A stretch of DNA of 64,000 nucleotides from assembly GCA_964525875.1 (NCBI GenBank), contig CAZGJS010000002.1, forward strand, positions 118,577 through 182,576. Direction: 5' to 3'. Below, one piece after another: positions 22,407 through 23,040 of the stretch (its first letter is position 1; every line of letters starts with the position of its first letter). Origin of the DNA: an uncultured Eubacteriales bacterium. Its GTDB lineage: Bacteria; Acidobacteriota; Aminicenantia; Aminicenantales; Saccharicenantaceae. The position numbers were made by a program, and so were the translations under genes. Under the pieces are notes generated by a model, which did no database searches, was not told where the DNA came from, and saw only the letters and a program-made list of their open reading frames with translations.

Positions 22407-22498
22407 TGGCGGAGAGGGCGGGATTCGAACCCGCGGTACACCTTTCGGCGCACACACGCTTTCCAAGCGTGCTCCTTAAACCACTCGGACACCTCTCC
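22407..22498 (-). tRNA. tRNA-Ser (anticodon GGA)
   Basis: Reverse complement GGAGAGGTGTCCGAGTGGTTTAAGGAGCACGCTTGGAAAGCGTG...CGCGGGTTCGAATCCCGCCCTCTCCGCCA. 7-bp acceptor stem, long variable arm, anticodon loop CTTGGAAAG, CCA encoded. Confidence 0.9.
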
Positions 22499-22618
22499 GT
22501 TCCTCCGATCCAAAGGTCAGCGGGCCCGGATATCGATAACGTTATCAAAAAAACTTAGATTGGTCAACGCACCATGCGGTCAGCTGCAGAGGCGCCTCAG
22601 GAATCTCCTCCGTCCGCT

Positions 22619-22698
22619 GCGGTGATTTCATACGCCTTCCCGGTCCGGATCCGATGGGAGGTCGCCGCGTATCCGTCCCGGGAAGACTAAATCACCGC
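22619..22698 (-). repeat. 80-nt nested inverted-repeat (long hairpin) element in the tRNA-Ser spacer
   Basis: Outer stem GCGGTGATTT/AAATCACCGC (10 bp), middle stem CTTCCCGG/CCGGGAAG (8 bp), inner stem CGGAT/ATCCG around GGGAGGTCGCCGCG. Strand is assigned only by the flanking minus-strand tRNAs. Confidence 0.4.
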
Positions 22699-22755
22699 TT
22701 TATGCTCCCTCCGGTGATCCCCTCGGCCCCGGATTCAGTTGGGCGATGGGTACCT

Positions 22756-22908
22756 CTAGAACGGCGGACGGTAGATGTTGATGATGTCTTTGAGGAGGGC
22801 GGCCGCGGCGCCGCGCGGGCTGGACCTCCCGCCCGTCACCGTCACCGTGCCTATGGAGTCGGTGAGGAAGGTGATGCCCTTTTCCGTCCCGTTGACATGG
22901 GCGAGCTT
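22756..22908 (-). pseudogene. short gene remnant (about 50 codons, no usable start) between the two tRNA-Ser genes
   Basis: Minus-strand frame KLAHVNGTEKGITFLTDSIGTVTVTGGRSSPRGAAAALLKDIINIYRPPF* reads like a protein C-terminus. A TAA lies immediately upstream and there is no ATG. Confidence 0.25.
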
Positions 22909-22948
22909 TTATTTTCCATGAGGACGACCCCTCAAGGCCGGATTTTCA

Positions 22949-23040
22949 TGGCGGAGAGGGCGGGATTCGAACCCGCGATCCCAATCGCTCGAGATAACGG
23001 TTTTCGAGACCGTCGCCTTCAACCACTCGGCCACCTCTCC
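22949..23040 (-). tRNA. tRNA-Ser (anticodon CGA)
   Basis: Reverse complement GGAGAGGTGGCCGAGTGGTTGAAGGCGACGGTCTCGAAAACCGT...CGCGGGTTCGAATCCCGCCCTCTCCGCCA. Anticodon loop CTCGAAA, long variable arm. The 3' 29 nt are identical to the other tRNA-Ser. Confidence 0.9.

Follow-up and report, generated by a model that had tools for sequence, protein, structure and literature searches.

A dispersed rod-shaped repeat and an internally deleted hom gene probably account for the spacer between two tRNA-Ser genes of an uncultured Aminicenantes bacterium

Two tRNA-Ser genes, with anticodons CGA and GGA, bracket a 450-nt spacer in a 64-kb stretch of DNA from an uncultured bacterium of the Aminicenantes (assembly GCA_964525875.1, contig CAZGJS010000002.1, positions 118,577–182,576), which we call the window. 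This spacer is probably explained by an ancestral, conserved locus and two unrelated events: an internal deletion in the resident homoserine dehydrogenase gene, hom, and the gain of a copy of a dispersed, non-coding repeat that folds into a long rod. A first-pass annotation of the same DNA had seen in the spacer a start-less coding remnant and a nested hairpin, and had proposed that both could be the scar of an integrative element; the remnant and the hairpin are confirmed here, whereas the scar is not. All features and counts given below rest on the window and on stretches of up to 14 kb from other genomes, designated by numbers preceded by L.

An internal deletion in an ancestral hom gene

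A scan of the genome collection with the RocD protein returned 80 loci, nearly all labelled Candidatus Aminicenantes and with 97 to 75 % identity, and the order tadA, tRNA-Ser(CGA), hom, tRNA-Ser(GGA), rocD, on a single strand, occurs over this whole range and is ancestral. The two tRNA genes are usually 1.1–1.3 kb apart in these loci, most of which show a full-length Hom match between them, and hom occupies the same position in about 70. In the closest relative, L001, intact hom is an open reading frame (ORF) of 351 aa, recognized by the NCBIfam homoserine dehydrogenase equivalog model NF005290 (314.7 bits, cutoff 286) and scoring 163.5 bits on PF00742. In the window, the frame that the first-pass annotation had described as start-less runs on the minus strand from 22908 to 22756; it is open over 50 codons and contains no ATG, its first GTG lying just 29 codons before the stop. 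Its translation matches positions 132–173, of 173, of the Pfam family Homoserine_dh, PF00742 (E = 5.8e-5; 23.4 bits, cutoff 22.9), and it is the end of the resident hom.

Two blocks of the window are collinear with L001. Positions 22941–22907 correspond to L001 2674–2708 at 97 % identity and contain the start of the intact gene (ribosome binding site, RBS, ATG and ca. 4 codons), and positions 22906–22758 correspond to L001 3601–3749 at 92.6 % nucleotide identity, the 3′ remnant showing 94 % amino-acid identity to residues 303–351 of L001 Hom. Because both blocks leave L001 2709–3600 (892 nt) without counterpart, hom carries an internal deletion of 892 nt in the window; and since 892 is not divisible by three, the surviving ATG reads in another frame than the remnant, which is why the latter appeared start-less. 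A programmed frameshift or a small gene within the remnant were ruled out, the ATG and the 50-codon frame being out of phase and the alignment with L001 showing a plain deletion. Imperfect direct repeats of 11 nt, GCGCGCCCGTG and GCTCGCCCATG, border the junction and are identical at 9 of 11 positions; the deletion was probably of the replication-slippage type. No second hom was found within the 64-kb window.

The hom region also varies in other genomes. The Hom match of L023 (ca. 2706–3730) is split into two segments, which may represent a second, independent disruption of the gene or a sequencing frameshift. Distant Aminicenantes carry, beside hom, one or two cargo genes between the tRNA-Ser genes (L036 1129–2304; L034 2534–3631; L067 2021–3676; L072, L075 and L076, ca. 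1060–3630); these are either dihydrofolate reductase (DHFR)-like, by inspection of the sequence, or of the beta-lactamase family and TolC-like.

The hairpin is part of a dispersed structured repeat

The nested hairpin pointed out by the first-pass annotation has a perfect outer stem of 10 bp and inner arms of 18 nt with 83 % complementarity, and folds better than shuffled sequences, reaching -46.4 kcal/mol on the minus strand (z = -4.5, 0 of 200 shuffles as good) and -41.1 kcal/mol on the plus strand (z = -2.7). It corresponds to the stem P4 plus the apical domain of a longer repeat (Table 1), and is flanked by conserved blocks that are not complementary to each other, CGGAGNGAGCATAAAGC on the 5′ side and CGCAGCGRRCGGAG on the 3′ side. 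Ten nt separate the whole copy from the hom stop codon, and 12 nt lie between its far end and the -35 box of the tRNA-Ser(GGA) promoter. The copy folds on the minus strand, the transcription strand of hom and of the tRNAs, and should form the 3′ tail of a tRNA-Ser(CGA)-hom transcript. The 5′ strand of its outermost stem, P1, is degenerate, with 5 of 9 pairs broken.

Further members of the family were sought with the pattern GAGCATAAAGC-N60-90-GCAGCGNNCGGAG, and at least 120 stretches of metagenome DNA matched it; two copies on a single contig occur, also within 7 kb of each other. We could align 106 distinct copies over ca. 165 nt, and their consensus fold is a rod of about that length and about -90 kcal/mol. 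It consists, in order, of P1 (GGCCGCGG/CCGCGGCC, an 8-bp terminal inverted repeat), P2, a tandem GA/GA internal loop, P3, a purine-rich internal loop that is conserved and non-palindromic (GGAGNGAGCAUAAA opposite AGCGRRCGGAG), P4 (GCGGUGAUUU/AAAUCACCGC, the outer stem of the window hairpin) and an exchangeable apical domain. This structure is conserved: 91.2 % of the cells are paired, versus 35–49 % in slid controls, both-sided changes occur at 43 of 56 pairs, values that none of 500 shuffles reached, and the covariation score is 0.235, versus 0.04–0.07. Compensatory changes are seen in the stems when the window copy is compared with that of L026 and with the rest of the family. There is also a clear strand asymmetry, with 332 G-U pairs against 92 A-C pairs and with a more stable fold on the sense strand in 107 of 108 copies (-88.8 kcal/mol on average, versus -76.1 kcal/mol for the other strand). 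Both the G-U excess and the stability of the sense strand indicate that the structure has been selected on one specific strand, either as RNA or as single-stranded DNA (ssDNA). The family is therefore, by the observed occupation of many non-orthologous intergenic sites, in both orientations and with a compensatory structure, a dispersed structured intergenic repeat, to which the window copy belongs.

A covariance model of the repeat, R1, finds a single copy in the window, where the hairpin itself also occurs once. Among L001–L080 its only matches were the hom-site copies of L026 and L008 and a weak one in L007, and over 696 kb of metagenome loci it recovered ca. 9 further copies without the exact pattern, including five of ca. 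200–230 nt with a three-way-junction apical domain, a short form of 122 nt and one of 249 nt. Copy density appears to be low, about one per 60 kb. In three loci, a canonical and a long (ca. 230-nt) copy form head-to-head pairs, 30–75 nt apart (L181 992–1418, L213 872–1346 and L248 1735–2178), recalling the mosaic clusters (bacterial interspersed mosaic elements, BIMEs) formed by repetitive extragenic palindromic (REP) elements.

The repeat matches no RNA family of Rfam 15. A comparison with Rfam, which the first-pass annotation had suggested for the hairpin, gave no match over the element even at E ≤ 10, either with the window copy, with those of L026 and L008 or with five canonical copies. 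Neighbourhoods with tadA and tRNA-Ser often contain the RNA of the signal recognition particle (SRP); this candidate was rejected, with no Rfam match at E ≤ 10 and a multi-copy element. A 6S RNA, considered for a rod with a large internal loop, was likewise discarded on the lack of an Rfam 6S match and on the occurrence of multiple copies, including adjacent pairs on single contigs. As for an origin in phages or plasmids, a canonical copy had no match among 72,556 plasmids or 50,697 phage records, and the 69 viral matches to the 16-nt 5′ block were all in unrelated contexts, none with the full 3′ block. A possible promoter inside the element (TTGAGG-17-CATAAA) was also dismissed, its “-35” positions covarying within stem P2 instead of being conserved. 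In the literature we found no report of such repeats in Aminicenantes, only general papers on REPINs (paired REP elements) and on MITEs (miniature inverted-repeat transposable elements).

Patchy presence of the repeat downstream of hom

The presence of the repeat at the hom site is patchy. Window positions 22571–22757 have no counterpart in the six closest relatives, L001–L006, and a homologous segment occurs at the same site in L026, in L008, with a different inner part, and in the metagenome loci L173, L232 and L251. The window copy is 84–87 % identical to copies at unrelated loci and just 67–75 % identical to those at the orthologous site. This identity pattern, together with the absence from the six closest relatives, suggests that the repeat reached a favoured site independently or was replaced there by gene conversion. 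The copies at the orthologous site have different apical subtypes, yet are far better conserved than their immediate flanks. Downstream of the repeat, the promoter block GCGTTGACC...TTTTTTG(A/G)TAA(C/G)GT (in another notation, GCGTTGACC...TTTTTTGATAACGT) is kept in relatives both with and without the repeat, and in L001–L006 it follows short hairpins.

The interval from the hom stop codon to the tRNA-Ser(GGA) promoter contains a different palindrome in almost every lineage (L001 3751–3790, L002 3700–3760, L006 3674–3859, L072 3703–3879 and L007 3661–3881), among them a perfect 11-bp stem in L001 and a nearly perfect hairpin of ca. 70 nt in L072; it looks like a hotspot for hairpin-forming inserts. 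Separately, some copies (L212 ca. 79–110, L233 ca. 4090–4120 and L254) lack the 5′ strand of P1 and have in its place a motif such as GA(C/T)CGCTGAAACC; in L212 and L233 this motif forms the tail of a further copy that is truncated. The window flank CCCATCGCCCAACTGAATCC (22731–22755) resembles the motif, so that the window copy may be what is left of two tandem or recombined copies.

Copies concentrate upstream of promoters

The copies show a positional bias with respect to the neighbouring genes. Copy-bearing intergenic regions are co-directional in 49 cases, divergent in 28 and convergent in 4 (n = 81), versus 77, 40 and 39, respectively, for background intergenic regions (n = 156). Convergent regions are thus depleted 5-fold (4/81 vs 39/156; Fisher p = 7e-5), and with a stricter limit of 400 nt there are none among 56. 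The downstream gene is co-oriented with the copy in 53 cases and opposite in 19, and 15–19 copies are antisense to both neighbours. Promoter-like sequences, TTGAC-N17-20-TAnnnT, were found within the ca. 100 nt scanned past the 3′ end in 21 of 107 copies, versus 7 of 107 on the other side, and the TTGAC boxes cluster ca. 10–40 nt past the 3′ end of the element. In the 10 loci having tRNA genes (Gly-Cys, Met, Phe and Ser) within 205 nt, the copy was always on the promoter side of the tRNA. The window copy, with the TTGACC of tRNA-Ser(GGA) 12 nt downstream, fits this pattern.

The proteins encoded next to the copies are diverse, 199 of them falling into clusters of at most four. No recurrent transposase, reverse transcriptase or REP-associated tyrosine transposase (RAYT) was found beside the ca. 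120 copies, the sole recurrent neighbour being hom at the orthologous site. Neither did we find target-site duplications: in 67 copies with a clear P1, the flanking direct repeats were no longer than those of shuffled pairings.

Table 1. Features of the tRNA-Ser spacer and its surroundings; coordinates refer to the window.
Feature	Coordinates	Strand	Evidence and remarks
Dispersed rod-shaped repeat, one copy, 168 nt	22579–22746	-	Covariance model R1, 144.7 bits (the copy was in the training alignment); model positions 1–169
Nested hairpin, 80 nt	22619–22698	-	Stem P4 plus apical domain; model positions 50–129
hom 5′ stub	22907–22933	-	RBS GAGGGG 22928–22933; ATG 22917–22919; ca. 4 codons to junction 22907/22906
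hom 3′ remnant	22756–22906	-	Last 50 codons and stop codon; not in phase with the stub ATG
tRNA-Ser(CGA), CCA encoded	22949–23040	-	ARAGORN; Rfam RF00005, 63.6 bits
tRNA-Ser(GGA), CCA encoded	22407–22498	-	ARAGORN; Rfam RF00005, 58.4 bits
Promoter-like site TAGAAA-17-TATAAT	23069–23097	-	Consensus scan, 10/12 matches; putative function
tRNA-Ser(GGA) putative promoter	22539–22567	-	Read from the sequence; putative function
tadA, tRNA adenosine(34) deaminase, upstream neighbour	23085–23534	-	ORF of 149 aa; context only
rocD, ornithine--oxo-acid transaminase, downstream neighbour	21150–22355	-	Context only

tRNA genes, neighbouring genes and promoters

Both ARAGORN and Rfam support the pair of tRNA-Ser genes around the spacer. 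The whole array from tadA to rocD lies on the minus strand, which the first-pass annotation had left unstated while correctly placing tadA upstream and rocD downstream on the same strand. TadA was identified by Pfam (MafB19-deam/dCMP_cyt_deam_1) and by the NCBIfam equivalog NF008113 (176.3 bits, cutoff 150), and RocD by Pfam Aminotran_3 (E = 2.4e-130) and TIGR01885 (551.6 bits, cutoff 378). The 3′ portion shared by the two tRNA genes, previously given as 29 nt, comprises 30 identical nt (22406–22435 and 22948–22977), namely the 3′ half of the T-arm, the 3′ strand of the acceptor stem, the encoded CCA and one flanking base. Since the two tRNA-Ser genes of L001 have the same 30 nt in common, this identity is a feature of the isoacceptors and not the result of a recent duplication.

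The promoter-like site upstream of tRNA-Ser(CGA) is ca. 25 nt 5′ of this gene and overlaps the end of tadA. The putative promoter of tRNA-Ser(GGA) would consist of a -35 box TTGACC (22562–22567), a 17-nt spacer ending in TGA and a -10 box TAACGT (22539–22544). Elsewhere in the window, positions 6843–7221 (minus strand) contain a bacterial class A RNase P RNA (267.9 bits), an ordinary housekeeping RNA gene.

A second rod-shaped repeat in the window

A second, unrelated rod occurs at 57395–57537 (plus strand, as folded), with -100 kcal/mol, z = -6.9 and no match in Rfam. Its position, in an intergenic region between divergent genes, is 17 nt upstream of a promoter-like site, TTGACC-17-TAAGAT (57554–57583). 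This rod is also dispersed, more than 15 of the loci fetched having at least one copy and some copies lying beside those of the first family; blastn hits with 80–96 % identity were obtained in, among others, L187 (twice), L198, L174, L155, L152/L183, L072, L075, L192 and L189. The second rod behaves like the first family.

Discussion

We propose that the copies would spread as non-autonomous mobile DNA through a strand-specific, single-stranded hairpin intermediate, with an enzyme encoded elsewhere, by analogy with REPIN/RAYT and IS200/IS605-type systems, which have a single-stranded hairpin intermediate and produce no target duplication. Negatively supercoiled DNA upstream of active promoters might favour the insertion, or the retention, of copies. 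We infer mobility from dispersal and presence/absence polymorphism only, since no enzyme, partner or target-site duplication was found.

The rod most resembles elements of the ERIC, REPIN and MITE types, although it lacks the target duplication that defines MITEs and the short units and GTAG/CGTC head that define REPs. With the enterobacterial repetitive intergenic consensus (ERIC, or intergenic repeat unit, IRU), a family of imperfect palindromes of 127 bp from Enterobacteria, it shares being a long, imperfect and non-coding palindrome found in intergenic regions, in both orientations and across related species, without any associated transposase known. Both also have size variants that result from insertions or replacements at fixed internal points, which here are apical variants of ca. 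122, 163, 169 and ca. 230 nt. However, there is no sequence similarity between them, and the rod comes from another phylum, the Aminicenantes, is longer (165–200 nt) and contains a conserved, non-palindromic, purine-rich loop. ERICs lie in transcribed regions near the ends of genes, whereas the rod is rare between convergent genes and concentrates upstream of promoters.

REP elements and REPINs are mobilised by RAYT transposases (Bertels and Rainey, 2011; PMC3116915). The rod is similar to them in being extragenic and multi-copy, in forming a long single-strand hairpin without target-site duplication, in its vertical persistence with spread within genomes, and in its clusters and head-to-head pairs, as in L181, L213 and L248. 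The first-pass annotation had considered a REP-like element as an alternative, which comes near to what the hairpin is. The rod is, however, one continuous unit of ca. 165 nt instead of two short REP units of 20–40 nt, and it has no GTAG/CGTC head, showing instead a conserved flank, (G)GA, before GGCCGCGG (that is, GGA followed by GGCCGCGG) and G(A)C on the other side. Additionally, no RAYT gene was seen beside the ca. 120 copies, and their density appears to be about one per 60 kb. As to MITEs, such as the Correia elements of Neisseria, the rod belongs to the same size class of 100–200 nt, ends in a terminal inverted repeat (P1, GGCCGCGG/CCGCGGCC), is adjacent to promoters and is polymorphic for presence or absence among close relatives. 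It differs from them in lacking a target-site duplication, the distribution of flanking repeats equalling that of the shuffled control, in a complementarity that spans the whole element and not just its ends, and in that a parent insertion sequence sharing its ends was not found near the ca. 120 copies. The conserved asymmetric internal loop and the promoter-upstream, non-convergent distribution set the rod apart from all three types.

Several points weigh against the explanation of the spacer by a deletion and a copy of a mobile, dispersed repeat, and are best considered together. Both blocks of the search pattern are invariant by construction, so that their conservation is partly an ascertainment effect, the conservation outside them being independent of the search. 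The context statistics derive from genes called with a crude filter of ORFs and third-position GC (GC3). The deletion was seen in one assembly only, and independent Logan contigs of the same strain break at both tRNA genes and so cannot confirm it. The stretches searched yielded no mobilising enzyme, no autonomous partner element and no target-site duplication. At the hom site, the element is ca. 97 % identical between L026 and L173 and the flanks much less so, which could mean selection at the level of the host. Lastly, a non-palindromic internal loop, a modular apical domain and strand-specific folding are expected of a functional RNA with a protein partner, and are not required of junk DNA.

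The main rival is that the rod works, as RNA or as DNA, together with a protein partner. It would be a functional structured RNA with an effect either in cis, on the promoter or transcript next to it, or in trans with its partner; it would have been copied to many places in the genome, and the window copy would be a working gene or regulatory element and not passive repeat DNA; we regard this as possible, if doubtful. Such a function would agree with the compensatory changes at 43 of 56 pairs and the predominance of G-U over A-C on one strand (332 vs 92), with the covariation of the internal loop itself (N42 with the 3′ R position: U-A 41, C-G 10), with a basal platform kept under at least four different apical domains, with the prevalence of copies co-oriented with the downstream gene (53 vs 19), and with an element conserved far beyond its flanks at the orthologous site. 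Nevertheless, no conserved promoter or terminator exists at the edges of the element, whose flanks are unconserved right up to P1, and the downstream genes are mutually unrelated. Many copies have a promoter-like site before the downstream gene, which would place the element outside that transcript, and the copies antisense to both neighbours (15–19) argue in the same direction, as does the degenerate P1 of the window copy. Furthermore, G-T wobble is tolerated in ssDNA hairpins, so the strand asymmetry is no proof of RNA.

A bolder suggestion, which we make tentatively and hold to be unlikely, is that the rod is no passive repeat and that it represents, as one of two or more families in these genomes, a promoter-upstream element of a new class. 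It would be a strand-specific ssDNA or RNA structure with a dedicated protein partner; it might sense or buffer the negative supercoiling behind active promoters, or insulate promoters from read-through, and would have been spread and retained for modulating the expression of tRNA and other genes.

With respect to hom, the deletion could be an assembly artefact or a minority allele in an organism with an intact gene, which we consider quite unlikely. The window derives from an uncultured organism, and hom is intact in all close relatives. Contigs L270 and L271, from the Logan assembly of SRR13723396, encode proteins identical to TadA and RocD of the window; they stop at tRNA-Ser(CGA) and start within tRNA-Ser(GGA), leaving the segment between the two unconfirmed. 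These breaks are possibly caused by the 30-nt repeat shared by the tRNAs or by heterogeneity of the intervening segment. On the other hand, the repeat at the deletion junction is only an imperfect one of 11 nt, shorter than the k-mers of assemblers, and joining would thus need reads crossing the junction; moreover, the retained parts have diverged normally from L001 (93–97 % identity).

It is very unlikely that the hairpin is a terminator, or a 3′-end stabiliser, of the transcript of hom and tRNA-Ser(CGA), with the other copies being terminators of other genes. A very stable sense-strand stem 10 nt past the hom stop codon would suit such a role, as would the short GC-rich hairpins found there in relatives without the repeat, e.g. 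GCGAAGGAGGG-ACTGT-CCCTCCTTCGC in L001. However, the stem is followed by GCAGCGGACGG and not by a T-run, and a terminator scan found 0 sites in 22300–23750. The 5-fold depletion affects precisely the convergent regions, where terminators are most needed, whereas 28 of the 81 copy-bearing regions are divergent, without any gene 3′ end, and 15 copies are antisense to the flanking transcription.

Finally, the integration scar proposed by the first-pass annotation can hardly be maintained. Integrases that target tRNA genes use their 3′ end, and adjoining tRNA-Ser genes with a common 30-nt 3′ portion, a spacer whose content differs among relatives and extra cargo genes in the distant ones do recall islands and prophages; but both tRNAs are complete, with different anticodons and a 3′ portion also common to the tRNAs of relatives, the intervening gene is the ancestral, housekeeping hom, conserved from 97 % down to 75 % RocD identity, the remnant is its ortholog (93 % nucleotide identity) and not foreign DNA, and the repeat family sits on the 5′, promoter side of tRNAs. 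No integrase was found in the spacer of the window or in those of relatives, where the ORFs are hom, DHFR-like, beta-lactamase-like and TolC-like, and neither the window nor any relative showed a partial tRNA duplicate (attL/attR) bounding foreign DNA at this site. The annotation had reasoned that a spacer conserved among relatives, with a hairpin occurring only once, would speak for a structured intergenic RNA instead of a scar; the spacer is in fact not conserved, and the hairpin, single in the window, belongs to a repeat family with matches elsewhere in metagenomes.

At the level of the locus, our results are mostly a clarification, in that there is no island scar. The inactivation of hom, a housekeeping gene of amino-acid biosynthesis, in this strain bears on the metabolic reconstruction of an uncultured lineage; unless the genome contains a paralogue, the strain should need threonine and methionine from outside, as an auxotroph. 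Aminicenantes are abundant in sediments and, to our knowledge, have no cultured representative, and their genomes contain rod repeats of at least two families, long, very stable and strongly covarying, that are absent from Rfam 15. Rods of this kind can mislead gene callers, screens for non-coding RNA and assemblers. The preference of the first family for sites upstream of promoters and its near absence between convergent genes are unlike the usual picture of REP and ERIC elements at gene ends, and this distribution offers a handle on the choice of sites, for which the main candidates are supercoiling, access to single-stranded DNA and promoter function.

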